A DNA stretch of 64,000 nt from assembly GCA_963698975.1 (NCBI GenBank), contig CAVOSV010000001.1, positions 98,514 through 162,513 of the forward strand. Reading direction: 5' to 3'. The notes below the pieces were generated by a model that made no database searches, was not told the origin of the DNA, and saw only the letters and a list, made by a program, of their open reading frames with translations. The DNA is from an uncultured Gemmatimonadales bacterium (lineage in GTDB: Bacteria > Gemmatimonadota > Gemmatimonadetes > Gemmatimonadales > GWC2-71-9). The position numbers and the translations under genes are program-made. Below, one piece after another: positions 28,801 through 64,000 of this stretch (positions are counted from its first letter, which is position 1; every line of letters starts with the position of its first letter).

Positions 28801-29057
28801 GCCGAGCAGGTGGACTTCTCGCCGTCCACCCCGCTGATCCCGAAGATCGCGTCCTCCACCGGGTCGATGATCTCCCGGGTAACCTCGGAAGGCGACGCGC
28901 CCGGATAGACGATGGTTACGCCCACCACCGGCTGCTGGATGTCGGGAAACTCGTCGGTGTGGAGATTGAGCAGGGCGAAGATGCCGAATACCACCAGGGC
29001 GACCATGGCGGTCACCGTCACGATCGGCCGGCGAATGGCAAAATCGGAGATGAACAT
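25874..29057 (-). pseudogene. RND (AcrB/HAE1-type) efflux permease, one frameshift
   Basis: MFISDFAIRRPIVTVTAMVALV starts at 29057 inside the long ORF 28335..30512. The body is ORF 25874..28540. The junction ...LADPGVTR/RFARIAGVAQVSVVGG is at CCCGGG 28562-28567. Confidence 0.9.
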
Positions 29058-32499: not shown

Positions 32500-32590
32500 A
32501 TGCCGAAAAAGGCAAACCCGTCGTGAGGCGGGGACGCAAAGCCAGGAGTCCCAAGCAGTTGTCGTCGGGATCGTCCGGTTGCCGAAGCGC
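32500..32590 (+). promoter_or_regulatory. c-di-GMP-I (GEMM-I) riboswitch aptamer
   Basis: GAAAAAGGCAAACC-CGUC-GUGA-GGCG-GGGACGCAAAGCC...CCGGUUGCC reproduces the conserved GGCAAACC, GNRA-capped P1b hairpin, GGACGCAAAGCC and closing GGUUGCC blocks of the Vc2-type aptamer. It sits ~160 nt upstream of the OM barrel gene at 32749. Confidence 0.7.
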
Positions 32591-51096: not shown

Positions 51097-52095
51097 GTGA
51101 CCACTCGCCTGATCCTGTCGTCGCTTTCCCTGATAGTTCTTCTCCTTGCCGTATCGGGCGATGGGGAGAGTCAAACCAGCCGCGCGCCGCTCAGGCTGGT
51201 GGCGGAGATCCCCGTCCCCGGGGGCGTCGGGCGATTCGACTACCAGAGCCTGGATCCCAGCGACGGAAGGCTGTACATCGCGCAGATGGGAGCCGGCCGG
51301 CTCCTGGTATTCGACACGAAAGCCGATCGGGTGATCTCCAGCCTACCGGGCTTTGCCCGGGTTACCGGCGTGCTGGCGGTGCCTCAGCTCGATCGGGTGT
51401 ACGCCTCAGCGGCAGGAAGGCACGAGCTGGTGGTGCTGGAATCACCGGCGCTTCGGGTGATGAACCGGATCCGCGACATCCGATTTCCCGATGGGATCGC
51501 CTACGCGGCCAAGGCGGGCAAGATCTTCGTGTCGGATGAGTCTGGGCAGCGGGACGTGGTGATTGACGCCCGGGCCGACAGCGGACTCGGCATGGTCGCC
51601 CTGGGCGGGGAGGCGGGAAACACCCAGTACGACTCGGTGGGTAATCGAATCTGGGTGGCGGTCCAGACCCGGAACCAGCTGGTGGCCATCGATCCCGCCA
51701 CGGACAGCATCGTGGGCCGCTACGATCTCCCCAGCGCCGATCATCCTCACGGCCTCTTCATCGATGCGCCGCACCGGCTGGCGTACGTGGCCTGCGAGGG
51801 GAACGGGAGACTGCTGGTGTTCGATCTGACTTCGCTACGAGTGATGGGAAGCTATTCGGTGGGAGACGATCCGGACGTGCTGGCCTACGATCCTGGATTA
51901 CAGCGGCTGTACGTGGCGGCAGAGTCGGGCGTGGTCACTGTATTCCAGCAACGCGGCGCGGCGCTGGAGCCTCTGGGCGAGTATCGGGCACCGGCGGCGC
52001 ACTCGGTATCGGTGGATCAGGCAACTCATCGGGTGTATCTGCCGCTGGAGAACGTCGGCGGACGGCCCGTGCTCCGGATTCTCTCGCCCCGCTGA
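51097..52095 (+). CDS. YncE/YVTN-type beta-propeller repeat protein (secreted)
   Basis: GTG start, signal peptide, and repeated ...RLYVA.../...RVYAS.../...RIWVAV.../...LAYVACEG... blades. Confidence 0.75.
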   Translation: MTTRLILSSLSLIVLLLAVSGDGESQTSRAPLRLVAEIPVPGGVGRFDYQSLDPSDGRLYIAQMGAGRLLVFDTKADRVISSLPGFARVTGVLAVPQLDRVYASAAGRHELVVLESPALRVMNRIRDIRFPDGIAYAAKAGKIFVSDESGQRDVVIDARADSGLGMVALGGEAGNTQYDSVGNRIWVAVQTRNQLVAIDPATDSIVGRYDLPSADHPHGLFIDAPHRLAYVACEGNGRLLVFDLTSLRVMGSYSVGDDPDVLAYDPGLQRLYVAAESGVVTVFQQRGAALEPLGEYRAPAAHSVSVDQATHRVYLPLENVGGRPVLRILSPR

Positions 52096-52105
52096 CCGAG
52101 AGCGC

Positions 52106-52303
52106 TCAGGCTGCCAGCTTTGCCTGACCGCTCTCGTCCGGAGGTGTAACTGCCTGGGCTCGCTTCCGCTCCAGGTCGGCGGCGATCAGGCGCTGAGCCA
52201 GGAGGATCGACGCCTCCACGGTAGCGGCGGCGGGAAGTCCCGAGTAGGCCTGGTCGAGCGGATTCTCCATGTTGTCCATCTTCCGAGTCTCCTGAGCGGA
52301 CAC
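52106..52303 (-). CDS. hypothetical small protein
   Basis: 65-aa ORF only. No family and no clear RBS. Confidence 0.25.
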   Translation of the reverse strand: MSAQETRKMDNMENPLDQAYSGLPAAATVEASILLAQRLIAADLERKRAQAVTPPDESGQAKLAA

Positions 52304-52457
52304 GTCCGCAACCAGCGTCGGACCTGCCCCGCTCCAGACGTTAACTGAAAACCACTCTCTAAACGAACTACCGAGTGAAGGCCCGAAAGATTCCGCCGAG
52401 CTCGAGTCTAGCCTCTCGGGTCAGGAGGGGGTAATGCATCGAGCGTGCCATGCTACG

Positions 52458-52533
52458 ACGGTTAACGGTGAACGGTGAACGGTGCTGGTGAACGGTGAAC
52501 GGTGAACGGTGAACGGTGAACGGTGAACGGTGA
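52458..52533. repeat. heptanucleotide tandem repeat (ACGGTGA)n, about 11 units, the last six perfect
   Basis: ACGGTTA ACGGTGA ACGGTGA ACGGTGCTGGTGA, then six exact ACGGTGA units. Intergenic, 164 nt upstream of the Big_2 lipoprotein start. Confidence 0.9.
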
Positions 52534-52696
52534 AGCGTAGGATCCCTCGCCGGCGAAGTCAGGCCTGCCGCATGATGTTGTGGTTGGTCGGGTACGAAGC
52601 GTGAGCCGTCGTCGGGCGATGGGCCCGGCGGCGGCTTGCGATTCCCCCCTAACGCTTCAAGCAGTACCTTGGTTTTATCCCCTTCCCACTCGTGCC

Positions 52697-53092
52697 ATGG
52701 CAGCGAAGCTCACCCTGCGTTGCGGCATCATCGCCCTCTATGGCTCCATGGTCGCCCTCCTGCTGGTGGGCTGCGATGCCGGGACCCTCATTGTCGTCGA
52801 CAGCTGTTCCGGCGTGGTCGCCGTGGTGGTAACACCCGACCGAACCGTGGTGCGAGTGGGTGATACGGTCACGCTCAACGCCAACTTTGCTTCCCCGGAC
52901 TGCGTCGCGGGAGGCCTAACAACCGAGCAGTGGCGGTGGTCGAGCAGCAATACCTCGATCGCACGGATCGACTCCTTGAGCGGAGTGGCGGAGGGCGTCG
53001 GTCCCGGTGAGGCCACCATCTATGTGCGTCACGCGCAGAACAGCGAAGTGGTGAGCAGTACCGACCTGACGGTGGTCGAAACAGGGCTGTAG
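52697..53092 (+). CDS. bacterial Ig-like (Big_2) domain lipoprotein
   Basis: Start MAAKLTLRCGIIALYGSMVALLLVGCDAG (lipobox). VTLNANF...WSSSNTSIARIDSLSGVAEGVGPGEATIYV is Big_2-like. Confidence 0.7.
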   Translation: MAAKLTLRCGIIALYGSMVALLLVGCDAGTLIVVDSCSGVVAVVVTPDRTVVRVGDTVTLNANFASPDCVAGGLTTEQWRWSSSNTSIARIDSLSGVAEGVGPGEATIYVRHAQNSEVVSSTDLTVVETGL

Positions 53093-53246
53093 TTCTGCTC
53101 CCCACCAAGAGATCCCAGTGACACCGACGGCGGGCGCTCCCGCGTCTGCTTTTGCAGCCGAGGAGTCTTCCGCAGCTGATGCGCGTTCCGTGCCTGCAGC
53201 ACAACCGCAGGCACCGGCAGTGTCCGGTATGTAAGAGAGGATCATT

Positions 53247-53447
53247 ATGCGAGCCTATTTACGGATTTCTGGCGCCCTGTTTGGACTCATTGCCTTGGCC
53301 CATCTGCTCCGGGTGGTCCGTCACTGGCCTGTTGATCTCGGGGGACACATAGTGCCCCTGTGGGCTTCATGGCTGGGACTACTCCTCGCTGGAGCACTGA
53401 GCATCTGGGCGTTCCGCTTAATCCGAGCTATGCCTAGAGCAATCTGA
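53247..53447 (+). CDS. small two-TM membrane protein
   Basis: AGAGAGGA RBS, 66 aa, two hydrophobic helices. It is followed immediately by attC-like sequence. Confidence 0.5.
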   Translation: MRAYLRISGALFGLIALAHLLRVVRHWPVDLGGHIVPLWASWLGLLLAGALSIWAFRLIRAMPRAI

Positions 53448-53464
53448 TGCGCTTAGATACGGGC

Positions 53465-53504
53465 GTCTGACTGCCGCATGCAGCTGACGCGCGGTCCGTT
53501 GGGC
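53465..53504 (+). repeat. attC-like site (unusually short)
   Basis: R'' GTCTGAC, GCATGCAGCTG fused to the right arm CAGCTGACGCGCGGTCC, then R' GTTGGGC (53498-53504). Confidence 0.5.
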
Positions 53505-53582
53505 GGCGCGCGAAGCATCTCCGCAAGGTCCGGAAGGCCCCAGTCATGGAGCGCATCCACCAGTCACGTCCGCGAGGGAGCC

Positions 53583-54026
53583 ATGCCACTGGCGGCGATC
53601 CTGATTTGGTACATGGTGATTGGCGCGCTGGCGGCCATCGGATCGGTGACGATCAGCCGCTCGCGGTTCTCGCCGCGGGTGGAACACATGCTATTCGCGC
53701 TGCTGCTCATTCCGATCGGCGCGATGTACCTGGCCTTCGTGGCGTACTTCGGCGACTACTCGACGCTCCGGCCCGAGGCCTTTGCGGTGGCGGTATTCGC
53801 CGTGCTCGGCCTCCTAGGCCTCCGGTTTGCCGCGCTCGTCGTGCTGGGCTACGCGCTCCACGGCGGGTGGGACCTGATGCACGAGCTCTGGGTGCACCTC
53901 GGCTCCGGGGCCGGCGGCGCGCGACGGCTCACCGACATACCGCTGGCATACGGAGTGTTCTGCGCGGCGTACGACTGGTGCATGGCGGCCTACTTCTATA
54001 CCCGACGGGTGGCCTGGCGGCAGTGA
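53583..54026 (+). CDS. cassette ORF: hypothetical four-TM membrane protein
   Basis: GGGAG RBS, ATG at 53583, 147 aa, hydrophobic throughout. Confidence 0.65.
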   Translation: MPLAAILIWYMVIGALAAIGSVTISRSRFSPRVEHMLFALLLIPIGAMYLAFVAYFGDYSTLRPEAFAVAVFAVLGLLGLRFAALVVLGYALHGGWDLMHELWVHLGSGAGGARRLTDIPLAYGVFCAAYDWCMAAYFYTRRVAWRQ

Positions 54027-54061
54027 GCGGCGCGCCCTAGTCGAGATCTCAGCGCAGCGCC

Positions 54062-54163
54062 GCCTAAACAAGCGCATGCAGCTGGCGGGCGCCTCAGCTC
54101 AACGGAACGTTAGATAGTGTCCCAACGGGCAGGTCGCCGCAGCTGATGCGCGGTCCGTTAGAT
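54062..54163 (+). repeat. attC site (family A)
   Basis: R'' GCCTAAAC. L'' GCGCAT-G-CAGCTG pairs with L' CAGCTGATGCGC, leaving one unpaired G. R' GTTAGAT at 54157-54163. Confidence 0.8.
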
Positions 54164-54276
54164 GGCGCCCACGCACTCATGTCGGGACAGATGAGACTAC
54201 CTACCGTGGGACCCGAGAGCCCCGGTCAGAGTGAGCCGGGACTATCGGACGACCGACCGCGAGATCCACGCTTCTG

Positions 54277-54795
54277 TTACTGTCCCGAGCTCGCACCCAG
54301 GGTGACGAGAAGCTCGTCCAGCTGATCGAATGTCTCGCCCATTGCATCGGCTGCTCCGGTGCCGGCAGCGTCGAGCGCTTCCTTCGAAGGATAGCTCTCG
54401 CGCAGGACCACCAGCGTCTTGCCGCCCGTTTCCTCGAAGGTCACCGTGGTGACAGGCCCGCCCTCGCCACCTTCTTCATTAGTCCACGCGAGACGCGAGT
54501 ACGGCTTCACTTCCACATACGTGCCGAAAAACGCGGCAGGCTCGGCGCCACCGTGGTCGAATACCAATCGGTACTTGCCGCCGACACGAGCATCCACCTC
54601 GCAGGACAGCAGGGTCATTCCCATCGACTTGGGCACCCACCAACGCTTGAGCAGCTCGGCCTTGGTAAATGCCTCGAACACGATGCGCGCCGGGCCGTTG
54701 ATGGTCCGCGTGACAGCCACCTCGCGGTCCGACTTCCGGTCCACCGTGGTGCGGTTCTTCAGGGGGCCGGGCTTACTTTCGATTTTTGCGTTCAT
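54277..54795 (-). CDS. SRPBCC (AHSA1/Aha1-like) domain protein, in a reverse-oriented cassette
   Basis: 172 aa. VAVTRTINGPARIVFEAFTKAELLKRWWVPK...VVLRESYPSKEALD is typical of the family. Confidence 0.8.
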   Translation of the reverse strand: MNAKIESKPGPLKNRTTVDRKSDREVAVTRTINGPARIVFEAFTKAELLKRWWVPKSMGMTLLSCEVDARVGGKYRLVFDHGGAEPAAFFGTYVEVKPYSRLAWTNEEGGEGGPVTTVTFEETGGKTLVVLRESYPSKEALDAAGTGAADAMGETFDQLDELLVTLGASSGQ

Positions 54796-55138
54796 CGCTC
54801 TTCTCCTTTCGTGTTAGTTCCTCGACAACCTTGTCCAACTCGTCGAAGCGTTCGTCCCAGCGCTGGCGGTACCTCTCGAGCCACACCGTCTCTTGCTCCA
54901 ATCGGCGCGGCCCCAGCTGGCACGTCCGCACGCGCCCGATCTTCTTCGTGGTGACGAGCCCCGCCTGCTCCAGAACGCCGACGTGCTTCTTCATGCCCGT
55001 GAGCGTCATGTGGAAGGTCTCGGCAAGGTCCGTGATCGAAGCGTCGGCTCGTCCGAGCTGCTCCAGAACCCCACGCCGCGTGGCGTCGGAGAGCGCGGCG
55101 AACGAAGTATCAAGTCGGGTCGTCAGATACTGAACCAT
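54773..55138 (-). CDS. ArsR/SmtB family transcriptional regulator
   Basis: FAALSDATRRGVLEQLGRADASITDLAETFHMTLTGMKKHVGVLEQAGLV is the HTH. It overlaps the SRPBCC start by 23 nt. Confidence 0.8.
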   Translation of the reverse strand: MVQYLTTRLDTSFAALSDATRRGVLEQLGRADASITDLAETFHMTLTGMKKHVGVLEQAGLVTTKKIGRVRTCQLGPRRLEQETVWLERYRQRWDERFDELDKVVEELTRKEKSDERKNRK

Positions 55139-55150
55139 ATGGTTCAGTAT
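55127..55150. promoter_or_regulatory. 24-bp perfect palindrome ATACTGAACCATATGGTTCAGTAT centred on the arsR start codon (candidate autoregulatory operator)
   Basis: Checked base by base. The centre CATATG contains the ATG (minus strand, 55138). Confidence 0.55.
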
Positions 55151-55210
55151 ATAACGCAAGCGTTGCGGCATGGCAAGGGGTGGCCGCGAAAAGCGATGCG
55201 TCCTAAGATC

Positions 55211-55385
55211 TCACAACGGCAGAGAGGGCCGTCACGATGCGGCCGTTCGGCAGGGACGCCCCTGTTTCTCAGTGCGTCCCTGCTTTTCGTGCTCGAGCCG
55301 ATAGTGTCAAGAGCATCCTGCCACGCTCGGCGGCACACCGATGGCGTGGAATACGCCGCCGCAGCTGATGCGCGGTCCGTTAGGC
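55211..55385 (+). repeat. attC site (right arm certain, left end uncertain)
   Basis: Right arm CGCAGCTGATGCGCGGTCCGTTAGGC with R' at 55379-55385. Internal GATAGTGT box as in family A. Candidate R'' TCACAAC at 55211. A further degenerate arm GCGATGCGTCCTAAGAT lies at 55194-55210. Confidence 0.55.
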
Positions 55386-55471
55386 GGAGCACCGCCCCGC
55401 TGTAACAGCCCGATCGCGAACTCGGGATTGTTCTAGCATCTTTCCTGGAGTCCGGTCGCGAAGGGAGAAGC

Positions 55472-55744
55472 ATGTCAGAAGAAACCCTGCGAGAGCTGGT
55501 CGCGAACCTCCGGTCGGAACTCACTCAGCCACACGATCTCGATGAACCGACCCGGCGGACGCTCCACGAATTGGCGCAGGAGCTAGAACAGGCGCTAAAC
55601 CGGCCAGCCGGCACACCGCCACGGCCAGTTCTCGCACTGCGCGGACGTTTGGCGGATCGGGTACGTGAGCTGGAAGCTTCACACCCGAGACTCGCGGCCA
55701 CGCTGGAGAACATTATCGATACGCTGGCGTTCTACGGGCTGTAG
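55472..55744 (+). CDS. cassette ORF: DUF4404 family protein
   Basis: 90 aa, helical. The C-terminus ASHPRLAATLENIIDTLAFYGL is typical of DUF4404. Confidence 0.7.
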   Translation: MSEETLRELVANLRSELTQPHDLDEPTRRTLHELAQELEQALNRPAGTPPRPVLALRGRLADRVRELEASHPRLAATLENIIDTLAFYGL

Positions 55745-55814
55745 TGGAGTCGGTCTGTGATAGCCAGCTCACCAAAACCTGGTCGCCGGGAGCGCGCCCA
55801 GGCCGTTGAACGCG

Positions 55815-55869
55815 CATGCATCCGACGGCCGGCCGAATCTGCGTGCGGGCGACCAGACTCCGCGAGGGA
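55815..55869 (+). repeat. degenerate attC-like site
   Basis: GTTGAAC-GC-GCATGCATCC...TCTGCGTGCGGGCGACCAGACT resembles the R''-L''...L'-R' layout but with a mutated R'. Confidence 0.3.
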
Positions 55870-55871
55870 AC

Positions 55872-56372
55872 ATGGACATCAAACCGACGCTGTTGGCTAT
55901 CTCCAACGACGCGCGGGCCTGGCTCAAGGCGTGGGCGCAAGACTTCACCGAGGCGGATGCCAGACTACCGGTGCCCGGGAGCCGCGCTCCGAATCCACTG
56001 GCGTGGCAGTTGGGCCATATCGCTTGCGTGGAGGACGATGTCGCGCAGCTGTTCACGCTGGATGAAAGACCGGAACCGCTCGTGCCGCCCGCCGTGCGAG
56101 CTGCGTGTGCCACCGGGAGCCCGGCACCCGACGAAGGGACAGGGTATCTCTCGCTAGCGGAGCTTTGGGCGCTCCTTGATCGGACGCATACGCACCTGCT
56201 GGCGATCCTGGAGGCAGCCGAGGACGCTGACCTGGATCGCCCGCCGCGCGTGGCGAATCCGTACTTCCGCTCCCTGGGTCAGGGAGTCTACGAAGCGGCC
56301 CTCCACGAGAACTACCATGTGGGCGAGATCGCGGCCGTACGTAAGGCGCTCGGTAAAACTCGGATCGGGTAG
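55872..56372 (+). CDS. cassette ORF: DinB family protein
   Basis: GAGGGA RBS, ATG at 55872. NPLAWQLGHIA...ALHENYHVGEIAAVRKALG is the DinB His triad pattern. Confidence 0.8.
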   Translation: MDIKPTLLAISNDARAWLKAWAQDFTEADARLPVPGSRAPNPLAWQLGHIACVEDDVAQLFTLDERPEPLVPPAVRAACATGSPAPDEGTGYLSLAELWALLDRTHTHLLAILEAAEDADLDRPPRVANPYFRSLGQGVYEAALHENYHVGEIAAVRKALGKTRIG

Positions 56373-56389
56373 AGCCAGGCCGGCCTGCA

Positions 56390-56519
56390 GCCTAGCCCGC
56401 TAGTGCAGTCGACAAGCGCGCACGGAGCGGAGCTCTGCCCGGGATGGTAACGGCAGACAGGGAGTTGCGGAACGTAGATTTTGACGGGTCGCATGCAGCG
56501 GATTTGCATTTCGTTAGAC
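56390..56519 (+). repeat. attC site (family B, AT-rich right-arm variant)
   Basis: Left arm GCCTAGCCCGCTAGTGCAGTCGAC. Right arm CAGCGGATTTGCATTTCGTTAGAC with R' at 56513-56519. Confidence 0.65.
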
Positions 56520-56546
56520 CGACTCTAACCAGGGGATGGGGGAGCA

Positions 56547-56951
56547 ATGACCACTGCGCCACCGCGCGATCTCGCTCTGCGCCGCTTGGGCCGGTCGGTA
56601 GTCGGAGCAGCGCTCGTTGGGGTCGCTGGTTGGATTACGCTGCGTAACCTACGCCTGCCCAACAACGATGGCTGGTTTTTCTGGGTTCCAATCGCGGGCT
56701 GGCTGGTTACGATGGGGCTGCTCTGCTGGTGGGCCGCACTGGCGCGTCAGCCGACGACCCGGGCTCGCATCGGGGCGAGTTGGCGGGCTGGCTGGGTCCT
56801 TGGCGCGGCCGGTCTCGCGCTCGGCTTTTTTGGTCCGCTTCTGATCACCCCGAAGGCCAACCTGGGGCCGCTACTCGGTATCTTGATCACAGGACCCGGG
56901 GCGTTTGTGCTGGGGGCGCTGGCGGCGGCGCTGGCATGGAGGAGTCCGTGA
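56547..56951 (+). CDS. cassette ORF: hypothetical four-TM membrane protein
   Basis: GGGGGAG RBS, 134 aa, Trp-rich TM helices. Confidence 0.65.
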   Translation: MTTAPPRDLALRRLGRSVVGAALVGVAGWITLRNLRLPNNDGWFFWVPIAGWLVTMGLLCWWAALARQPTTRARIGASWRAGWVLGAAGLALGFFGPLLITPKANLGPLLGILITGPGAFVLGALAAALAWRSP

Positions 56952-56953
56952 TC

Positions 56954-56976
56954 GAGCTGGTGCGCAGTCCTTAGGC
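56954..56976 (+). repeat. degenerate attC right arm
   Basis: GAGCTGGTGCGCAGTCC-TTAGGC compared with the consensus CAGCTGATGCGCGGTCCGTTAGGC. The G of GTT is missing. Confidence 0.35.
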
Positions 56977-57110
56977 TGCTCCAGGCGATCACGATAATTC
57001 CTACACGCATGCCCTGCAGTGAACTCACTCCTGACCATGGGGCTCCGGCGTAGAACTCTCAAAGGGGCATGGTCCCGTCAGAACCGTTCTCTTGAGATAG
57101 CGTAACCACC

Positions 57111-57884
57111 ATGGGAACTTGGGGCACCGGACTTTTCTCAAGCGATATGGCGCGTGACATCCGCGACTTTTACCGAGAGCGGATTGAAGACGGTATCGAG
57201 GACGCCGAAGCGACTCGCCTGACCCTCGAGAAGTTCCGGAGTTACCTCGACGATCCTGAAGAGGGCCCAGTGTTCCTTGTTGCCCTCGCCGTAACCCAGT
57301 CGAAGATCGGTCGACTTGATCCGGTCGTTCGTGGCCGGGCTCTAGCTGCCATCGACAGCGGTGCCGATCTCGCCACGTGGGAACAGGAGAACCCTAAGCT
57401 GCTGCCCAAGCGGCGAGAGGTTCTCAACAAAGCCCGCGGGCAAATAACGGGCGACCAACCAGCTCGCAAGCATCTACGACCACCGCCCCGGCCGAGCTGC
57501 GGACTCATCGCCGGTGACATCCTCGCTCTGAGTCTCGCGAATCGTGTTGCACTCTTGCGGGTCGTGCGAATCAAATCGCACCGCCGCGGTGAAACTCCGT
57601 ATCTTGAACGACTCGACTTCAATGGCTCAGCAGTGCCGTCAGCACCTGAGCTGGCGCAGCTCGGGGCAACAGGCAAGAACCCGGTCAATAACCTCCATGC
57701 TTCATCTGGTGAGATTCGCTTTAGCGCGTTTACTGCCTCCGACAAGATCGGTTGGAGAGAGGCCGGTTTCGAGAAAGTCGCTACGATCGCTCCGAGGCAG
57801 GGCGATGATCAGGCAATTTGGCCCAGCTATGGTGTTGCGTGGTCCGCGCTCGTTCGACAGTACCGACAGCGGGCGGCCGGATAA
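57111..57884 (+). CDS. cassette ORF: DUF4259 domain-containing protein
   Basis: The N-terminus MGTWGTGLFSSDMARDIRDFY is the DUF4259 signature. 257 aa, noticeably less GC-rich than the core genes. Confidence 0.7.
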   Translation: MGTWGTGLFSSDMARDIRDFYRERIEDGIEDAEATRLTLEKFRSYLDDPEEGPVFLVALAVTQSKIGRLDPVVRGRALAAIDSGADLATWEQENPKLLPKRREVLNKARGQITGDQPARKHLRPPPRPSCGLIAGDILALSLANRVALLRVVRIKSHRRGETPYLERLDFNGSAVPSAPELAQLGATGKNPVNNLHASSGEIRFSAFTASDKIGWREAGFEKVATIAPRQGDDQAIWPSYGVAWSALVRQYRQRAAG

Positions 57885-58038
57885 CAACGCAGTGCATCGG
57901 GCGAGCACGCGGCGAATGGCCAGGGTCGTGACGCAGCGACGGCCGCGGTGTATCTGGCGATCCCCGGCTGTCATGATATTGGATCGGCCGCACCACCAAC
58001 TGGAAAGTCGGCAGGCACTAATCTGTTTCCCTACGCGC

Positions 58039-58138
58039 CGCCAACAAGTGCATGCAGCACACGGCTGCGTCAGCTTTAAGAAGACGCTGGATGGTTGGGC
58101 GAGCGGCGCAGTCGCAGGTGATGCGCGGTCCGTTTCGC
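58039..58138 (+). repeat. attC site (family A)
   Basis: R'' CGCCAAC, then AAGTGCATGCAGCAC. Right arm GCAGGTGATGCGCGGTCC and R' GTTTCGC (58132-58138). Confidence 0.7.
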
Positions 58139-58195
58139 CGCATTCACCCGGCCTCCCCTTCTGGCACAACTTCCACCATCTGCGGAGTGTATCGC

Positions 58196-58645
58196 ATGGC
58201 TACCATTATCGGCCACGAAGCTGCCATCCCCAACCCGACCCTGAAGCCTCTTGGTCTCCTTGTCGGCGAATGGCGCACTGAAGGCTCGCACCCCATGTTG
58301 CCAGGCAAGACTCTTCATGGTCGCACCAGCTTCGCCTGGTCCGACGGCGGGGCTTTCCTCGTCATGCGCTCGGAGATTGACGAACCGGACATTCCAAGCG
58401 GCATCGGGATTTTCGGCACTGACGACGATGCCAAGGAATGCTCCATGTTGTATTTCGACGAGCGGGGTGTGTCGCGCCGCTACATCGTCGCGCTGCGCAG
58501 CGACGAGTGGCAGTGGTGGCGTGAGACTCCTGGTTTTACTGGTCGACTTGTCGATGGGGGCAGGCGCATGGTGGGGCAGGGCGAGATGAACCGTGGTGAC
58601 CGCTGGGAGCCAGACCTCCAGCTCACGTACACTCGGCTCGCATAA
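58196..58645 (+). CDS. cassette ORF: hypothetical protein (DUF1579/lipocalin-like, tentative)
   Basis: ATG at 58196, 149 aa. LKPLGLLVGEWRTEG is an N-terminal motif of that type. Confidence 0.6.
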   Translation: MATIIGHEAAIPNPTLKPLGLLVGEWRTEGSHPMLPGKTLHGRTSFAWSDGGAFLVMRSEIDEPDIPSGIGIFGTDDDAKECSMLYFDERGVSRRYIVALRSDEWQWWRETPGFTGRLVDGGRRMVGQGEMNRGDRWEPDLQLTYTRLA

Positions 58646-58671
58646 CGAGCGGACTTCCCGGCCTGAATGCG

Positions 58672-58768
58672 GCCTAACCCCCTCATGCAGCCGACGGCCC
58701 GAGGCGGTCCATAGATTTTGTGCGGGTGCGGAAATGATCGCCCGCAGCGGATGCGCGGTCCGTTAGGC
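58672..58768 (+). repeat. attC site (family B left arm, GC-rich right arm)
   Basis: R'' GCCTAAC (58672-58678) is the exact reverse complement of R' GTTAGGC (58762-58768). The inner arms CTCATGCAGCCG / CGCAGCGGATGCG pair imperfectly. Confidence 0.85.
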
Positions 58769-58793
58769 CGCGCCACCTATACCCTGTCCGGTA

Positions 58794-58835
58794 TCGTCGG
58801 TGTCGGATCTTCTCTCGTCGGTGTCGGATCTTCTC
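58794..58835. repeat. perfect 21-bp tandem duplication TCGTCGGTGTCGGATCTTCTC x2
   Basis: Copies at 58794-58814 and 58815-58835, inside a cassette and upstream of its ORF. Confidence 0.9.
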
Positions 58836-59013
58836 TATGAACTGAACGCACGTTGAGATTTCCTCTGTCAATGAGGAATGGCTCCGCTTCGCCCTGGCCA
58901 ACGGTGGAGAGCCCCTGGACCCCGCCAAGATCGCACGGCTCTGTTTTCGTTGTGACGCGCCTGACCGACGCCGACTCCTCGACCTCGAGATCTCCGCCGG
59001 GCGGGAGCGCGGG

Positions 59014-59319
59014 TTGCTCTACCGTGTCCGGACCTTGGGAGAACAGGAACGCCAACCAGTAGCGCTCTTGGAACCATACTCTTCACGGTCAGAGCATTTC
59101 GTGACCATCTGCGCATGGTGCGAGCGCGTCGCGGTGCCGGCGCAGGGGTGGCTGGAGATTGAGGTGGCTATTGCGGTGCTCCCCGCGCTTGCCGAGCCTC
59201 GTCTCAGGCAGCTGACCCATGGCGTCTGCGAGGTGTGCGCTCAGGCCCTCCACGGTGCGCTCAGCGAGGAACCAGTCAGTGTCGTTGTGGGGCAACTGGA
59301 GTCCGCCCGGCGCGCCTAA
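59014..59319 (+). CDS. cassette ORF: hypothetical Cys-rich (CxxC...CxxC) protein; true start unclear
   Basis: The frame is open and protein-like from 58846 (NEEWLRFALANGGEPLDPAKIARLCFRCDAPD...) with no ATG or GTG before the TTG at 59014. ICAWCE...GVCEVC are the Cys pairs. The TAA stop lies inside R'' GCCTAAC. Confidence 0.45.
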   Translation: MLYRVRTLGEQERQPVALLEPYSSRSEHFVTICAWCERVAVPAQGWLEIEVAIAVLPALAEPRLRQLTHGVCEVCAQALHGALSEEPVSVVVGQLESARRA

Positions 59320-59440
59320 CCCGCTAATGCAGGCAACAAACTCGAGCGAGGCCAGTAGTGACAACCGATCCCGCGCCAGCTAGCGGTCGCAAGGCCTGCC
59401 GACGGTACTGCGCTGACGGCCGCCAACAAACGATGTAGAT
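59314..59440 (+). repeat. attC site (family B left arm; right end degenerate)
   Basis: Left arm GCCTAACCCGCTAATGCAGGCAAC. The only R'-like sequence is GTAGAT at 59435-59440, directly before the next ATG. Confidence 0.45.
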
Positions 59441-60601
59441 ATGAGGATGAGCACGATTCGACGTATTCAAAGGTTTCTTCTCCTCTCTGTGACGGGGACT
59501 CTCGCCCTGTCCTGTCGGGGTCGGGTGGATCCCTCGGCGAAGGAATCGGCGCCCATTGTGGATGTCCAGCTTGGAGCGCCGACCTATATGAACTACGGGG
59601 GAGATTCTTGGGATCCCACCTGGGCGGAGGACGACAACCTCTATGCCGCGGTGAACGATGGCGCCGCCTTCGGCACTGTTAAACGGAATATTGGCTATAC
59701 GAAAATGACCGGGAACGATCCGCTCGCCTTGACCGGTCAGATGCAGAGCCTCATGGATTACGGCGCGATGAATGCGCCGACCGCCATCGACGGCCGGAAC
59801 TGGAAAAGTGGGGGGAGCATTTCCATCGATGGGGTTCAATACTTGTCCATCGGCATGGATCGGTATGTTGACCCGGCCTACGGAGGAAGGCAGACCCGCA
59901 TCCACGCGAGCATCATCAAATCGACCGATCATGGTGTCCACTGGACGCGGCCGATTGCGGAGAACCTCAAGCAGCCGATGTTCCCGGGGATGAGGTTCTC
60001 GACACCCTTCTTCATCCATTATGGAAAGGATTACGCCGCGGCGACCGTAGACAACGCTGACAAGTATGTCTACGCGAGCGCCAATAACGGCTTTTGGGAC
60101 AATGGCGATAATTTCATTCTGGGACGTGTCCTGAGATCGAAGATTGGTGCTCTGAAGGCGGCGGACTGGGCCTTCTACAGCGGCGGGGCCGGGATGCAGG
60201 ACTCGAGCTGGGTCAGCGACATGAACAAGGCCACGCTCATCATCGATGCTCCGGGAAGATGCGGCGAGGCTGGCGTGACCTATCTCCCCGCGCTCAAGAG
60301 GTACGTGCTGGTGACCTGGTACTACCCGATCGGCAACGGTCATGCCGGCAAGATCGAGGAGACCGAGCTCGTGTTCTACGAATCGCCCAAGCCATGGGGA
60401 CCCTGGAAAAGCTTCAAGAACATCCGCGCCAACCCCCAGGGCTGGTACATCCCCAAAGTCCTGTCGAAATTCCAGACGCACGTGGGGCGGGACCTTCAGG
60501 CCTACATCGCCGTCGCCGGAGACTGGCGAAACCCTACCTATTACAAATTCACGATGGTGCCCGCCAAGTTCGTGACCGGCCCTCCAGGAGCGCAGGAGTA
60601 G
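59441..60601 (+). CDS. cassette ORF: secreted lipoprotein, beta-propeller/sialidase-like (DUF4185-like, tentative)
   Basis: 386 aa, lipobox LALSC. GDSWDPTWAEDDNLYAAVNDG and STDHGVHWTRP motifs. Confidence 0.55.
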   Translation: MRMSTIRRIQRFLLLSVTGTLALSCRGRVDPSAKESAPIVDVQLGAPTYMNYGGDSWDPTWAEDDNLYAAVNDGAAFGTVKRNIGYTKMTGNDPLALTGQMQSLMDYGAMNAPTAIDGRNWKSGGSISIDGVQYLSIGMDRYVDPAYGGRQTRIHASIIKSTDHGVHWTRPIAENLKQPMFPGMRFSTPFFIHYGKDYAAATVDNADKYVYASANNGFWDNGDNFILGRVLRSKIGALKAADWAFYSGGAGMQDSSWVSDMNKATLIIDAPGRCGEAGVTYLPALKRYVLVTWYYPIGNGHAGKIEETELVFYESPKPWGPWKSFKNIRANPQGWYIPKVLSKFQTHVGRDLQAYIAVAGDWRNPTYYKFTMVPAKFVTGPPGAQE

Positions 60602-60660
60602 AGATCGCCTCCGAGGAATCTTCAGCATCACGGGGTGACGCCCGGGGTGAGAAAGCGTAC

Positions 60661-60797
60661 GCCCGATCAGGTGGCCGATTTAAAGAACGCGTTAGCGGAG
60701 GATGCAGTGGCGCGGCTCTAGGCGCTATCGGTGGGAGCGTTGGATATGGTGCGGCAGCGGAGAGAAGTCGCCGCAGCTGATGCCCAGTCCGTTGGGC
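60661..60797 (+). repeat. attC site (family A-like)
   Basis: Right arm CGCAGCTGATGCCCAGTCCGTTGGGC with R' at 60791-60797. Candidate left core GCCCGAT at 60661. Confidence 0.6.
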
Positions 60798-60850
60798 TGG
60801 CGCTCATCCATGCCTGAGCCCTGCAAGCCTGAGACCGATGGAGCGACCTA

Positions 60851-61207
60851 ATGGCGACCAAAGATGTCGTTCAGGGCTACTTCGATTGTCTGAGAGTGAA
60901 GCGAGGATGGGAAGCCTTCCTGGCTGATGAGATGGAGTTCACCAGCTTCACCAGCCCGATCAAGCGCGTGACGGGTAGAGGCGCCTATCTCGAAGCAACA
61001 AAGCGTTTCTACTCCATGATCAAGACTTTGGAGATCCAGGGCCCCATCATCGTGGATGGAGAAAGGGCCTGCGTTCTGACCCGATACGAACTTCAGCCAC
61101 CTGCTGGCCTTGTGTTCGAGAGCCACGTCGCGGAAGTGTTTGAAGTGCGGAATGACAAGATCAAGGCGTTTAACATCTACTTTGACAGTGCACCTTTCCC
61201 CAAGTAA
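60851..61207 (+). CDS. cassette ORF: SnoaL-like / NTF2-fold protein
   Basis: 118 aa. VVQGYFDCLRVKRGWEAFLADEMEFTS...VFEVRNDKIKAFNIYFD. Two sampled 60-nt lines give about 57-58 % GC by hand count, against ~72 % in one core line. Confidence 0.7.
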   Translation: MATKDVVQGYFDCLRVKRGWEAFLADEMEFTSFTSPIKRVTGRGAYLEATKRFYSMIKTLEIQGPIIVDGERACVLTRYELQPPAGLVFESHVAEVFEVRNDKIKAFNIYFDSAPFPK

Positions 61208-61354
61208 GAGAAACCCGGCAAATCACTGGGACGCGACGTTCTTGACCCCGGGCTCGGAGCCTATTACGAGCTGCCAGGCACTGAGTCGGCCAGACGTGTC
61301 CTGCGGCTCCTTGGCAGAGCCGTCGCAAGAATCGAGCAGCTGAGGAGGTGTAGC
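61208..61354 (+). repeat. degenerate attC-like site
   Basis: GAGAAACCCGGCAAATCAC resembles the family B left arm. GAGCAGCTGAGGAGGTGTAGC resembles the right arm and also supplies the RBS for the next ORF. Confidence 0.35.
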
Positions 61355-61359
61355 GGATC

Positions 61360-61725
61360 ATGAGGAACCTAGTCATTCTCGCGGCGGCGCTCGAAATTCC
61401 GACCGGTCTGGTCCTCATCCTCGCTCCCACCCTTTTTACGCAACTTCTATTCGGCACCGAGATGTCAGCTCCAGACCGGGCACTTGCCCCGCTTGCTGGT
61501 TTTGCCCTGCTAGCACTCGCAGTTGCCTGTTGGCCGGCACGCGGTGTTTCCGCGCCGCCAGCTTCCGCCGTCCGAGCACTCCTGGCATTTAGCTTCTTGT
61601 GCGCTGCGTACCTGGTATATCGGGGGATATCGGGGAACAGGACTGGGCTACTCCTGTGGCCTGCGGCCACTGGTCACGCCGTGCTCGGAGTACTTCTGAC
61701 GGTCGCTCCACGTTTAAGGGGTTAG
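61360..61725 (+). CDS. cassette ORF: hypothetical four-TM membrane protein
   Basis: 121 aa, hydrophobic. The 3' end runs into the following attC. Confidence 0.6.
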   Translation: MRNLVILAAALEIPTGLVLILAPTLFTQLLFGTEMSAPDRALAPLAGFALLALAVACWPARGVSAPPASAVRALLAFSFLCAAYLVYRGISGNRTGLLLWPAATGHAVLGVLLTVAPRLRG

Positions 61726-61775
61726 ATAGTATCCAAACGACAAGTCACCGCGGCTGATGCGCGGCCCGTTTAGGC
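61694..61775 (+). repeat. attC site (family A, left arm truncated)
   Basis: TTCTGAC...GTTAGATAGTATCCAAACG...CGCGGCTGATGCGCGGCCCGTTTAGGC with R' at 61768-61775. Confidence 0.6.
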
Positions 61776-61795
61776 GCACCGCTTGAAAGACAATC

Positions 61796-62500
61796 GTGAC
61801 CACTCGCACAATCATCCGATTTGGGGGTTTCTGTCTCGCAGGTGGTGCGATTGCGTTTCTTGTCGTCTTCGCTTACCTCGCCGCGCGCTTCAGTTACCCT
61901 GATGTCCTTGATGGTCCGGCTGCAACGGTCTTGCCAGCTCTTCTCGCGACCGGCCCTCAGGGCCGCCTGGTTTGGGCCATCTATGCGCTCCTCCCACTGA
62001 TATGGCTTCCAGCCGGCGTCGCGGCCTACGAAGCTTTGGCCCCGGTACGTCGTGGGGCGATGCGGCTGGCGCTGATGTTCGCGGTAGTGGCGGCCCTCGC
62101 CTTGATGTTGGGCCTCATGCGCTGGCCGAGTGTTCACTGGCACCTCGCATTGGCATTTGAGCGCGCAGGCCCCCCGGAGCAGGCCATCATTTCATCCATT
62201 TTTGATGGCCTTAACACCTATCTGGGCAACTACCTCGGTGAGTTTCTGGGTGAACTCTCTTTCAGCGCGTTCTTCCTATTGACTTCGATCGTTTGGCTGC
62301 ACTCACCAGGGACAGCCAGCTGGATTGGCTGGGTTGGTCTCGCGACGGCGGCGTTCGGTTTTGCAGGCATGTTCCGCAACGTCACCGACACCGTGGCTCC
62401 TATCGCAGCCCTGAACAATTACCTACTCCCCGCTTTCATGATCATTCTTGGTATCGCGCTCGTGCGGTGGCCGATGGGCCACGATGCAACGGGCGCCTGA
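61796..62500 (+). CDS. cassette ORF: DUF4386 domain-containing membrane protein
   Basis: GTG start, 234 aa, six TM segments, family-like layout. The TGA stop lies inside R'' GCCTGAC. Confidence 0.65.
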   Translation: MTTRTIIRFGGFCLAGGAIAFLVVFAYLAARFSYPDVLDGPAATVLPALLATGPQGRLVWAIYALLPLIWLPAGVAAYEALAPVRRGAMRLALMFAVVAALALMLGLMRWPSVHWHLALAFERAGPPEQAIISSIFDGLNTYLGNYLGEFLGELSFSAFFLLTSIVWLHSPGTASWIGWVGLATAAFGFAGMFRNVTDTVAPIAALNNYLLPAFMIILGIALVRWPMGHDATGA

Positions 62501-62597
62501 CAAGCGCATGCGGGTGACGGCGCCTCACTTCAAAGGAACGTCGGGATAGTGTGCACAAACGAGGAAGTCACCCCAGCTGATGCGCGGTCCGTTAGGC
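62495..62597 (+). repeat. attC site (family A)
   Basis: R'' GCCTGAC, AAGCGCATGC, internal GATAGTGT, right arm CCAGCTGATGCGCGGTCC, R' GTTAGGC (62591-62597). Confidence 0.85.
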
Positions 62598-62724
62598 GGC
62601 AGCCGAATAGATCATTGTGGCGCCTGCCGTTTCATGAAGTCGCAGTGCCGCCAGCTGGATCGTGCTCAATCTTGAGCGCCAGAGAGAGGGTCGGACAAGC
62701 CCCTGCCCGATGGAGGATCGTACG

Positions 62725-63120
62725 ATGACGGAAGCAGGTCCCGGCACGGTATGTCTCGCTAGCATCGCACCCCAATTTCTAGTGGACGATCTCAGCGCAG
62801 CCATGGCGTATTATCGCGATAAGCTCGGATTCAGCCTCGACTTCTGCTACGACTCGTTCTACGCAGGTGTGAGCCGCGACGGCTGTGCAATTCATCTCAA
62901 GTGTGCCCCCAAGACGCTCAGCGACCGAGCACATCGTCAGCAGAACGAGCATCTCGACGCCTATATCAGTGTCACCGGGGCCGCGACCCTGCAAGATGAA
63001 CTGCGGTCGCGTGGTGCATCCATCATTAAGTCGCTCGAAGCGCGACCGTGGTCGTGTATCGACTTCTACGTGGAGGACCCCGATGGATACATTCTCTGCT
63101 TCAGCGAGCCGACCGCCTAG
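62725..63120 (+). CDS. cassette ORF: VOC family (glyoxalase/bleomycin-resistance-like) protein
   Basis: GGAGGA RBS before the ATG at 62725. PQFLVDDLSAAMAYYRDKLGFSLDF...FYVEDPDGYILCF. Confidence 0.8.
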   Translation: MTEAGPGTVCLASIAPQFLVDDLSAAMAYYRDKLGFSLDFCYDSFYAGVSRDGCAIHLKCAPKTLSDRAHRQQNEHLDAYISVTGAATLQDELRSRGASIIKSLEARPWSCIDFYVEDPDGYILCFSEPTA

Positions 63121-63140
63121 AAGCCGGTCCGAACAGGCTG

Positions 63141-63284
63141 GCCTAACCCGCAAATCCAGCCGACAGGCGGGGGCGGGCCAGGGCTCCTGGGAGGCGCGGC
63201 GCTCCTCACGGCGTAGCAGCGGAAGCGTCGATGTGTGCGGGCGCCAGCATGATCGTCCGCAGCTGATTTGTATCTTCGTTAGAC
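63141..63284 (+). repeat. attC site (family B, AT-rich right-arm variant)
   Basis: R'' GCCTAAC. L'' GCAAATC-C-AGC pairs with L' GCTGATTTG(T), giving a compensatory change relative to GCGCAT/ATGCGC with an unpaired base at the same place. R' GTTAGAC at 63278-63284. Confidence 0.7.
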
Positions 63285-63307
63285 AGAACCGACGAGGAAC
63301 GCGGTAG

Positions 63308-63823
63308 ATGGAAATTGGATCAGTGAACCAGTTCCTGGATTACTGGGGCAACCTGCGGGAACGGACCCGCCGAGTGGTACTATGCATTCCCGCCGAGCGC
63401 CTGGAGTGGACGTATCGCGTGGGCGCGTTCACGTTCGGCGACTTGATTCGCCACCTGGCGACCATCGAGCGCTACATGTACGCGGAAACAGTGGCCGGGC
63501 GTCCCAGTCGGTATCCTGGATGCGGGCGCGAGTTAGCAGACGGGTATGAAGCGGTGCTGGCGTACGCCGATCGGCTCGATCAGGAGGCGAAGGACATCAT
63601 TGCCGGGCTGGAGGACACGGACCTCGCGCGCAAGTGCCGGACGCCGGCGGGCACACCGATCACCACGTGGAAGTGGTTGCGGGCCATGTGCGAGCATGAG
63701 GCGCATCATCGAGCCCAGATCTACCTCATGCTCAACATGCTAGAGATCGATACCCCTCCGCTGTTTGGCCTGACGTCGGAAGAGGTCCGTGCGCGGTCCG
63801 CTAGACACCCGGAAACATCATGA
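63308..63823 (+). CDS. cassette ORF: DinB family protein
   Basis: 171 aa. FGDLIRHLATIERYM...MCEHEAHHRAQIYLMLNML. Confidence 0.8.
   Translation: MEIGSVNQFLDYWGNLRERTRRVVLCIPAERLEWTYRVGAFTFGDLIRHLATIERYMYAETVAGRPSRYPGCGRELADGYEAVLAYADRLDQEAKDIIAGLEDTDLARKCRTPAGTPITTWKWLRAMCEHEAHHRAQIYLMLNMLEIDTPPLFGLTSEEVRARSARHPETS
63789..63806 (+). repeat. degenerate attC right arm inside the 3' end of the DinB ORF
   Basis: GTGCGCGGTCCGCTAGAC compared with the consensus ATGCGCGGTCCGTTAGAC. Confidence 0.3.
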
Positions 63824-64000
63824 CGATCAGGCGGATGGACAACGTAGGCATCGTGGTAGAATCCCTCGATTCCGCCATCTCCTTTTTCTCCGAGCTTGGC
63901 CTGAGACTCGAAGGGCGCACCACGGTCGAAGGAGAGTGGGCTGGGCGCGTCACCGGACTCGGGTCCCAGCGCGTCGAGATCGCCATGCTGGTCACTCCAG
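63820..64000 (+). CDS. cassette ORF: VOC (glyoxalase) family protein, 3' end cut by window edge
   Basis: ATGA overlap with the DinB stop. My translation reads MTIRRMDNVGIVVESLDSAISFFSELGLRLEGRTTVEGEWAGRV..., open to nt 64000. Confidence 0.7.
   Translation, partial: MTIRRMDNVGIVVESLDSAISFFSELGLRLEGRTTVEGEWAGRVTGLGSQRVEIAMLVTP

Follow-up and report, generated by a model that had tools for sequence, protein, structure and literature searches.

Closest Described Systems

Clusters of attC sites lacking an integron integrase (CALINs) were defined by Cury et al. (2016, PMC4889954), and their possible origins include loss of the integrase gene intI, a rearrangement that splits an integron, and IntI-mediated insertion at secondary sites. 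The element considered here lies in a 64-kb stretch of DNA from a Gemmatimonadales soil bacterium (the window, always meant at its full length), of which it occupies 52.45-64.0 kb before running on beyond the window end, and it is very probably an integron gene-cassette array that has no integrase in cis at its 5′ end. Like a CALIN (PMC4889954), it is a chromosomal group of two or more same-strand attCs, with neither an intI gene nor an intI pseudogene nearby in the 64 kb, and its cassettes are of unknown or non-resistance function and unrelated to those of mobile integrons. It differs from described CALINs in having about 16 junctions, which is above their average of about five attCs, and in that many of its sites are visibly decayed, its chromosomal position recurs in a related species (locus L015), and its right end lies beyond the window. 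Subject to what the 3′ side holds, the element is a partly fossilised CALIN whose chromosomal site is conserved. The initial annotation of this DNA, which called the attC type and cassette pool little studied, overstated their novelty, because Gemmatimonadota integrons and CALINs in general have already been described (PMC8618304, PMC4889954). The locus adds to a known kind of element and is conceptually not new; it leaves the general picture of integrons unchanged, and its value is descriptive, as a well-resolved integrase-less cassette array from a poorly cultured soil phylum.

The chromosomal integrons of Xanthomonas at ilvD have inactivated integrases and decaying arrays, in which the intI gene or a pseudogene of it is still present. 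The array resembles them in its conserved position, in cassettes that differ between close relatives, and in signs of lost recombination activity and site decay, and differs from them in that no trace of intI is left at the locus. In chromosomal integrons of the Treponema denticola type, the "inverted integrase" group, intI is transcribed in the direction of the cassettes. This group, so named in PMC3575428, is resembled by five loci that carry the attC family of the window (L025, L037, L020, L057 and L091), where intI lies upstream and is co-directional. The likeness is one of layout; the Gemmatimonadales IntI proteins are 53-56% identical to IntI1, which belongs to a different group, and the window itself is without these features. 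Sedentary chromosomal integrons such as the superintegron of Vibrio cholerae, with its species-specific V. cholerae repeats (VCRs; PMC5027507), share with the Gemmatimonadales arrays long (about 108-145 nt), homogeneous attCs with branched terminal structures, small cassettes of mostly unknown function that number dozens in relatives, and reversed, self-regulated modules. The array departs from the Vibrio type in its phylum, in bottom-strand bulges that are C and C/T instead of G and T, in its spacers of 5 versus 2 nt, and in having no integrase at the locus.

Recombination Sites of the Window

The initial annotation started from a box of about 24 nt said to recur on the + strand. With the consensus CAGCTGATGCGCGGTCCGTTAGGC, this box is matched seven times with up to three mismatches, each time on the + strand and within 53481-62597, and has none in 100 dinucleotide-preserving shuffles. 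Repeat finding gives nine copies of an 18-nt core of the same family, including an extra one at 53173, together with a second family that represents the left arms (GCCTAACCCGC.AAT.CAG). The GTTRRRY-type cores that had been placed at 53498, 54157, 55379, 56513, 58132, 58762, 60791, 61768, 62591 and 63278 are all present, those at 58132 (GTTTCGC) and 61768 (GTTTAGG) in degenerate form. A left partner had been claimed for each of them and does precede most, but the core at 55379 has none, that at 60791 has a degenerate one, and that at 61768 lacks the L′′ arm. The site list also proved too short, as decayed junctions occur in addition at 53127-53196, 55800-55866, 56955-56978, 59312-59406, 61215-61352 and 63790-63805.

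An independent view of these sites comes from a lineage-specific covariance model, R1, which was built on an alignment (A1) of 140 non-redundant attCs, all of them foreign to the window. Its structure was taken from the consensus fold; RNAalifold returned no structure for the 140-site alignment. When the whole 64 kb was scanned with R1 on both strands and with filters off, six matches at E<0.01 were obtained, all on the + strand and all within the array (53459-62599; Table 1). Three more sites in the array have weak scores (9, 14 and 13.3 bits), and the other 53 kb contains nothing significant, its top match of 16.5 bits (E=0.035) being noise. At the scale available, 64 kb and 88 foreign loci, neither a scattering of the box nor a failure of the covariance model to score the sites was seen, two of the outcomes that the initial annotation had set against its own reading.

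Two lineage-specific attC families can be defined, type A of 105-110 nt (about 108) and type B of about 145 nt. On the top strand, type A has the consensus GCCTAAC AA GCGCAT [G] CAGCTG [R] CGGCG ... CGCCG CAGCTG ATGCGC GGTCC GTTAGGC, and type B reads GCCTAAC CC GCGCAT [G] CAGCCG [A] CAGGCC ... GGCCTG CAGCTG ATGCGC A.TCC GTTAGGC. Compared with the known attC range of 57-141 bp, type A lies within, type B is marginally above and a 44-nt derivative in the window is below. The R′′-L′′...L′-R′ architecture that had been proposed is borne out by folding, which yields a hairpin consisting, in order, of the R-box stem, a spacer that is unpaired, a stem of 6 bp, a bulge, the 6-bp palindrome CAGCTG, a second bulge and a variable terminal structure. 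This hairpin forms without constraint for the consensus and for the sites at 54058-54165, 58669-58770 and 62492-62599. Among the R′′/R′ core pairs are GCCTAAC/GTTAGGC (58672/58762), which are exact reverse complements as first noted, GCCTGAC/GTTAGGC (62494/62591) and GCCTAAC/GTTAGAC (63143/63278). Across A1, R-box pairing is present in 84% of cells, and overall pairing reaches 84.5% of cells versus 30-44% when the partners are slid.

The unpaired bases expected of attC hairpins are conserved: both single-base bulges belong to the top strand's 5′ (′′) arm, where they occupy positions 16 and 23 and flank the 6-bp CAGCTG stem. In functional attCs, the extrahelical bases lie on the arm that faces the bottom-strand AAC, the first and last 6 bp apart (Nivina et al., PMC5027507), and the bulge geometry of types A and B agrees exactly with this rule. 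The placement of the bulges therefore identifies the + strand as the top strand, in agreement with the direction of the ORFs (open reading frames). The one-base bulge first read as GCGCAT-G-CAGCTG against CAGCTGATGCGC is correct, and so is the variant at 63141-63284 in which pairing is kept through compensatory changes. This double change in type B, from GCGCAT/ATGCGC to GCAAAT/ATTTGC, is found in 4 of 14 homologous copies, that of the window included. In the same window site (63140-63284), the bulged base is C on the top strand and hence G on the bottom strand.

Decay is visible along the whole array. Of about 16 junction sites, an intact appearance is kept by about four of type A and one of type B. 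R1 finds six matches in 11 kb of the window, only one of them above 100 bits, versus 38 in 32 kb, mostly at 95-128 bits, in the IntI-linked array of L025/L045/L040/L047, a gap that is in part explained by the fact that some of the latter sites had helped to train R1. The modes of decay are loss of an arm, loss of the terminal region and fusion of the last two cassettes, whose stop and start codons overlap. Because CAGCTG is palindromic, its two copies in a site are also direct repeats, so that a deletion such as that in the 44-nt derivative at 53459-53506 can easily occur; this derivative is probably non-functional. At the half-decayed site 55294-55387, R1 gives just 14 bits and nhmmer matches model positions 78-110 only. 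The site at 58666-58770 combines a left arm resembling type B with a right arm resembling type A. The array thus offers a natural decay series that runs through arm loss, deletion of terminal structures through the palindromic box, and cassette fusion.

The attC Family and its Integrases in Other Genomes

Among 185,579 species-representative genomes, the 20-nt core GCTGATGCGCGGTCCGTTRG turned up in 94 stretches, nearly all of them from Gemmatimonadales metagenome-assembled genomes (MAGs) and many with several copies on the same strand, which upholds the earlier guess of a Gemmatimonadota-like lineage. With an nhmmer profile, 373 copies of an element of about 108 nt were located in 88 loci, with about 280 full-length copies. 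All copies are on a single strand in 87 of these loci, and their spacing has a median of 664 nt (quartiles 543 and 921), which fits integron cassettes and not dispersed repeats.

The arrays are physically linked to integron integrases. In tblastn searches, full IntI genes were found to adjoin the arrays in L025 (3761-4756) and L037, and partial ones, cut by contig ends or frameshifted, in L020, L057 and L091; in all five loci, intI precedes the array and shares the strand of the cassettes. Over 315 residues, the proteins of L025 and L037 have 53-56% identity to IntI1, and they match the whole of the NCBIfam model TIGR02249 "integron integrase" (model positions 1-315, the IntI-specific segment included) with 423.4 and 421.9 bits, respectively, against a cutoff of 265. 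In L025, a GTTAGGC about 60 nt past the intI stop codon is a candidate attI core, the first full attC is at 5271-5380, and the small ORF of the second cassette ends with a TAA stop inside the R′′ core. The contig CAVUMU010000005.1, to which L025, L045, L040 and L047 belong (about 27.7-64 kb), encodes a 331-residue IntI, behind which at least 38 attCs extend across 36 kb or more. This locus is the complete chromosomal integron of another Gemmatimonadales MAG. The two attC families are thereby linked to their cognate integrase in relatives, and the covariance model can be used to assign soil cassette amplicons to Gemmatimonadales.

Some members of the family occur under other taxonomic labels. 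CAZLYT01 (L030 and L091), a bin labelled Candidatus Competibacteraceae and assigned to Gammaproteobacteria, carries the same attC family, with seven exact cores in 8 kb, and its IntI is only 67% identical to the L025 protein; this case reflects either mis-binning or a spread of the integron type beyond Gemmatimonadales. Single sites are also present in bins labelled Chloroflexota, Pirellulales, Ignavibacteria and Eisenbacteria. One exact 20-nt core lies in a complete alphaproteobacterial genome, the chromosome of Bradyrhizobium sp. McL0616 (L023, 7750-7769). Because the full-length profile gives no match there, this is most likely a chance match, among the few estimated for a 20-mer in 596 Gb.

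Deviations from the Usual attC

Several observations weigh against reading the array as a CALIN. The usual extrahelical bases of the bottom strand are G at position 16 and a conserved T at 23/24 (PMC5027507), but the first bulge is a bottom-strand C (top G), not G, in 116 of 118 type-A sites, and the second is T (60 sites) or C (52 sites), corresponding to A or G on the top strand. The spacer is 5 nt on the ′ arm (GGTCC) and 2 nt on the ′′ arm (AA/CC), although 5-6 nt on both arms is usual. Covariation within type A is nil in A1. The bottom-strand fold is not favoured, the top strand being more stable by a mean of 0.94 kcal/mol, and the wobble asymmetry between G-T and C-A is absent (160 vs 142). 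Some of the high R1 scores in the comparison arrays are inflated, because the sites concerned had helped to train the model. Finally, the array 3′ of position 64000 can be followed for 0.83 kb only, in L001, so that an integrase may lie beyond this point or in another part of the genome.

The identity of the bulged bases is a deviation from the usual and does not exclude the sites from attCs, because the published rule says "usually" (PMC5027507); the window site 63140-63284 carries the canonical bottom-strand G and T. The type-A covariation is uninformative because the family is nearly invariant in sequence. The identity of the extrahelical bases and the spacer geometry constitute a testable deviation. 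It is conceivable, though we consider it unlikely, that Gemmatimonadales attCs and their IntI form a distinct recognition variant, with C and C/T bulges, a 5/2 spacer, the CAGCTG box, no bottom-strand bias and a co-directional integrase, and that the array may exchange cassettes in trans. If this were true, the choice of strand and the orientation of cassettes might follow rules unlike those of IntI1 and VchIntIA.

The Missing Integrase

The initial annotation had seen no tyrosine recombinase in the 64 kb, and this observation withstood tblastn searches with IntI1, XerC and the IntI of the lineage itself. The IntI1 and XerC queries, validated by their strong matches to L025 and L037, gave no match over the 64 kb, and the L025 and L037 integrases revealed neither an integrase nor a remnant of one over the same length (best E=0.38). 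The intI-proximal (attI) region of L025 has no match in the window, where the ensemble of intI, attI and cassette promoter that makes up a complete integron was not found; L025 and L037 have this feature. The cluster of at least two one-strand attCs that marks a CALIN is provided by the six R1 matches together with type-B and decayed sites, and the definition further asks that no intI or intI pseudogene lie within 4-10 kb. None is present in the 53 kb that precede the array on its 5′ side or within the array itself, the 3′ side being visible for the length covered by L001. The first reading of the locus, as attC sites and promoterless cassettes with an intI that is absent or elsewhere, is supported.

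The folded bottom (-) strand would be the substrate of IntI, and cassettes would be excised as circles and re-inserted; the linkage of the sites to IntI in relatives and the permuted cassettes are indirect evidence for this. Such an IntI may have gathered and shuffled the cassettes of the window. The integrase at the locus would later have been lost, or may never have been in cis. Because it is absent in cis, any present mobility would need an IntI from elsewhere in the genome. Most sites would now be drifting, with the loss of arms or whole terminal regions and the fusion of two cassettes.

An alternative is that the window shows the visible part of a complete sedentary chromosomal integron, with intI and attI past the right end or split off by rearrangement, so that the array would be no true CALIN. 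The array does leave the window at 64000, very large complete integrons exist in the same order, such as that of CAVUMU010000005.1, and an integron that has been split appears in reports as one CALIN and one integron (Cury et al., PMC4889954). However, in the five related loci that have intI it is co-directional with the cassettes and at the 5′ end of the array, and this end of the window array, at about 52.4-53.2 kb, has no intI, no remnant and no attI-like match; the syntenic relative L015 is likewise without intI at the same junction. This alternative is therefore improbable. It is hardly credible that the repeats are REP- or BIME-like (repetitive extragenic palindromic sequences; bacterial interspersed mosaic elements) or terminator-like intergenic repeats with a coincidental cassette layout: they are indeed intergenic, GC-rich, imperfect palindromes without covariation within the family and with fold energies that are unexceptional for GC-rich DNA (z about -1 to -2 against shuffles), but they are restricted to one strand of one 11-kb stretch, form single-strand arrays at similar spacing (about 660 nt) elsewhere, are linked to TIGR02249 integrases, combine GTTRRRY/RYYYAAC cores with bulges that obey the attC spacing rule, and separate genes that are permuted between genomes with breakpoints at the repeats. 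A REP/BIME-like dispersal is largely refuted by the lack of copies outside the array in the 64 kb.

Permuted Cassettes and the Limits of the Array

Comparison with other arrays is in keeping with a CALIN whose cassettes were once exchanged. Homologues of 14 of the 18 window ORFs are present in attC-bearing loci of other genomes. The closest syntenic relative, CAWGVB010000015 (tiles L015, L011 and L021), shares the left flank, also carries an array, and has six modules in common with the window in permuted order. If the cassette units of the window are numbered in coordinate order from c0 (the Big_2 ORF) to c16 (the truncated glyoxalase), the shared modules follow one another as Big_2, c2, c3, c4+c5, c6, c7, ..., c15 in the window, versus c15, c4+c5, c7, Big_2, c3, c2, c6 in CAWGVB010000015. 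The ArsR/AHSA1 module is bordered by full attCs on both sides in L010 and abuts a glyoxalase cassette directly in L069; the breakpoints therefore coincide with attC junctions. From the sequences, this shuffling was probably carried out by an integron integrase.

The left limit is defined by synteny. Positions 51621-52451 of the window correspond to L015 1-836 at 89% identity, after which the sequences diverge. The array start had been placed at 53465; by synteny, the variable region already begins at about 52452, and an attC-like element is first met at about 53127. The junction is marked by a microsatellite, (ACGGTGA)x11 at 52458-52534 (Tandem Repeats Finder), which is absent at the same junction in L015 and L096. 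In L096, a more distant 2-kb metagenome contig, the flank is immediately succeeded by the Big_2 gene, and the homology extends as far as about 53127, which is the start of the first, decayed attC arm of the window; no integrase is found on these 2 kb. In L011 and L019, Big_2 homologues lie deep inside arrays, directly after a homologue of the 57111-57884 gene. Because Big_2 is adjacent to the flank in L096 and located within arrays in L011 and L019, its status as first cassette or flank is uncertain, and the ORF at 52697-53092 probably represents either the first cassette or a hitch-hiker. At the end of the flank, 110 nt (52340-52451) are unusually conserved between species; they include a hairpin (CCGAG...CTCGG) as well as 39 contiguous nt that are identical in L015. 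An Rfam search of this segment gave no match; it could encode a small RNA, act as a terminator or be the target of the array in the chromosome.

At the right end, the only extension is L001 (ENA ERZ25039579 contig_32899, 4.2 kb), which is 96.5% identical to window 60582-63995 with the same cassette order. Many single-base indels break its ORFs, which suggests a noisy assembly, either of the same strain or of one very close to it. In its 0.83-kb extension, the glyoxalase gene is completed at 149 residues and a GNAT gene follows, with no clear attC. A search for further contigs encoding the 257-residue protein of 57111-57884, from which the window might be extended, found none.

Cassette Genes

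Table 1. Recombination sites and cassette genes of the array in coordinate order (aa, amino acids; HTH, helix-turn-helix; D numbers are repeat families).
Feature	Positions	Strand	Evidence and remarks
Left limit of variable region	52452-52534	+	Synteny ends at 52451 in L015 and L096
Big_2 lipoprotein ORF	52697-53092	+	Pfam
Decayed attC	53127-53196	+	Only the L′-R′ arm CAGCTGATGCGCGTTCCGTGCCTG recognisable; D3; R1 9 bits; core at 53190 degenerate
66-aa small membrane protein ORF	53247-53447	+	Ribosome-binding site; homologues in attC-bearing loci of 6 other contigs
44-nt attC derivative	53459-53506	+	Variable terminal region deleted between two palindromic CAGCTG boxes; R1 25.2 bits, E=1.3e-4
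DUF6010 membrane protein	53583-54026	+	Pfam; 85-94% homologues in L081, L011/L021
Intact type-A attC, best of window	54056-54165	+	Minimum-free-energy fold is the canonical hairpin on both strands; R1 108.3 bits, E=8.5e-28
AHSA1/SRPBCC + ArsR-type HTH regulator, two-gene cassette	54277-55171	-	Pfam
Half-decayed attC	55294-55387	+	L′-R′ arm 55353-55385 perfect (exact 24-nt box), left arm gone
DUF4404	55472-55744	+	Pfam; 91% homologue in L011
Strongly decayed short attC-like junction (GCGCATGCATCCGACGG ...)	55800-55866	+	D14; read by eye; no significant R1 match
DinB_2	55872-56372	+	Pfam; 89-92% homologues in L011, L019
Decayed type-B attC (GCCTAGC CC GCTAGT-G-CAGTCG ... GTTAGAC)	56385-56519	+	D5, D10; partial blastn to type-B sites
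134-aa membrane protein	56547-56951	+	ORF; 76% homologue in L021
attC remnant, right arm only (GAGCTGGTGCGCAGTCCTTAGGCT)	56955-56978	+	Sequence reading; no R1 match
257-aa ORF, no Pfam family	57111-57884	+	95% homologue in L011, other neighbours
Type-A attC, degenerate R′ core GTTTCGC	58034-58140	+	R1 45.4 bits, E=3e-10
149-aa ORF, no family	58196-58645	+	Pfam search
attC, R′′/R′ cores perfectly complementary	58666-58770	+	R1 45.9 bits, E=2.3e-10; fold with 9-bp R-box stem
Cassette ORF, start uncertain	58846-59319	+	TAA stop inside R′′ core; 64% homologue in L018
Decayed type-B attC (GCCTAAC CC GCTAAT-G-CAGGC ... GCAAGGC)	59312-59406	+	Reference copy of D5; short blastn to left arms elsewhere
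DUF4185, 386 aa, signal peptide	59441-60601	+	Pfam
Weak type-A attC, right arm good, left degenerate	60684-60799	+	Box with 3 mismatches; nhmmer 28.6 bits; R1 13.3 bits
SnoaL-like (SnoaL_2)	60851-61207	+	Pfam; 89% homologue in L077
Strongly decayed attC-like junction (GCAAAT-C-ACTGGG ... CAGCTGAGGAGG)	61215-61352	+	Read by eye; no model match
121-aa membrane protein	61360-61725	+	ORF
Type-A attC without L′′ arm	61673-61776	+	17-nt deletion between TGAC repeats, by comparison with 62489-62599; R1 21.2 bits, E=0.0018
DUF4386 membrane protein	61796-62500	+	Pfam; TGA stop inside R′′ core
Intact type-A attC	62489-62599	+	Canonical fold; R1 72.8 bits, E=6.7e-18
Glyoxalase/VOC	62710-63120	+	Pfam
Type-B attC, about 145 nt, GCAAAT/ATTTG variant	63140-63284	+	13 homologous sites in other arrays
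DinB	63308-63823	+	Pfam; 93-94% homologues in L015, L044
attC remnant (TGCGCGGTCCGCTAGA) within 3′ end of DinB ORF	63790-63805	+	Right arm only; D8
Glyoxalase ORF start, leaves window	63820-64000	+	Pfam; fused to preceding DinB cassette, start overlaps its stop

The array contains about 17 small ORF-bearing units, a figure that replaces the 14-15 cassettes counted in the initial annotation. A unit generally comprises a single + strand ORF, in most cases promoterless, with an attC behind it; almost all of these ORFs stand singly behind a Shine-Dalgarno-like purine run, and the exception in orientation is the reversed ArsR/AHSA1 unit. Sigma-70-like promoters are not enriched in the array (2 vs 2.6 expected). 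The stop codons that had been read within the left core, at 59317-59319 and 62498-62500, are indeed there. The functions encoded (DinB, glyoxalase, SnoaL and DUFs) are typical of environmental cassette arrays, and no resistance genes are among them.

Two cassettes have further features. In the reversed unit, a near-perfect palindrome of 18/18 nt at 55121-55156 (CGTCAGATACTGAACCAT/ATGGTTCAGTATATAACG, inverted repeat I21) overlaps the probable ATG of the ArsR-type gene and looks like an autoregulatory operator, so that the reversed cassette would bring its own control. Between the attC at 58666-58770 and the ORF at 58846-59319 there is an exact 21-nt tandem duplication (TCGTCGGTGTCGGATCTTCTC x2, 58794-58836), and the ORF that follows may be a damaged cassette gene, because no start codon precedes 59014.

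Chromosomal Surroundings

G+C content is slightly lower over the array (0.59-0.64) than upstream of it (0.65-0.68). Outside the array, the window consists of ordinary chromosomal genes, including those for peptidases, a TonB-dependent receptor, GH65, ABC transporters, a ClC channel and an RCC1-repeat protein. A plasmid or an integrative and conjugative element was rejected as the context because the flanks are ordinary chromosomal genes without a transposase or recombinase. The attC consensus has no match among 72,556 plasmids, and the window contains no tRNA or tmRNA gene that might be an integration target.

An Rfam scan of the window yielded no attC family; its sole match is an unrelated riboswitch, a c-di-GMP-I-GGC aptamer at 32502-32587 (+) (RF03167, 69.9 bits vs a gathering score of 59). 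This aptamer is upstream of + strand ORFs that start from about 32.9 kb and has no relation to the array. A resistance-nodulation-division (RND) efflux system at 25874-31870 (-), which includes an AcrB-like pump (735 bits) and an OEP protein of the outer membrane, is likewise part of the ordinary chromosomal context.

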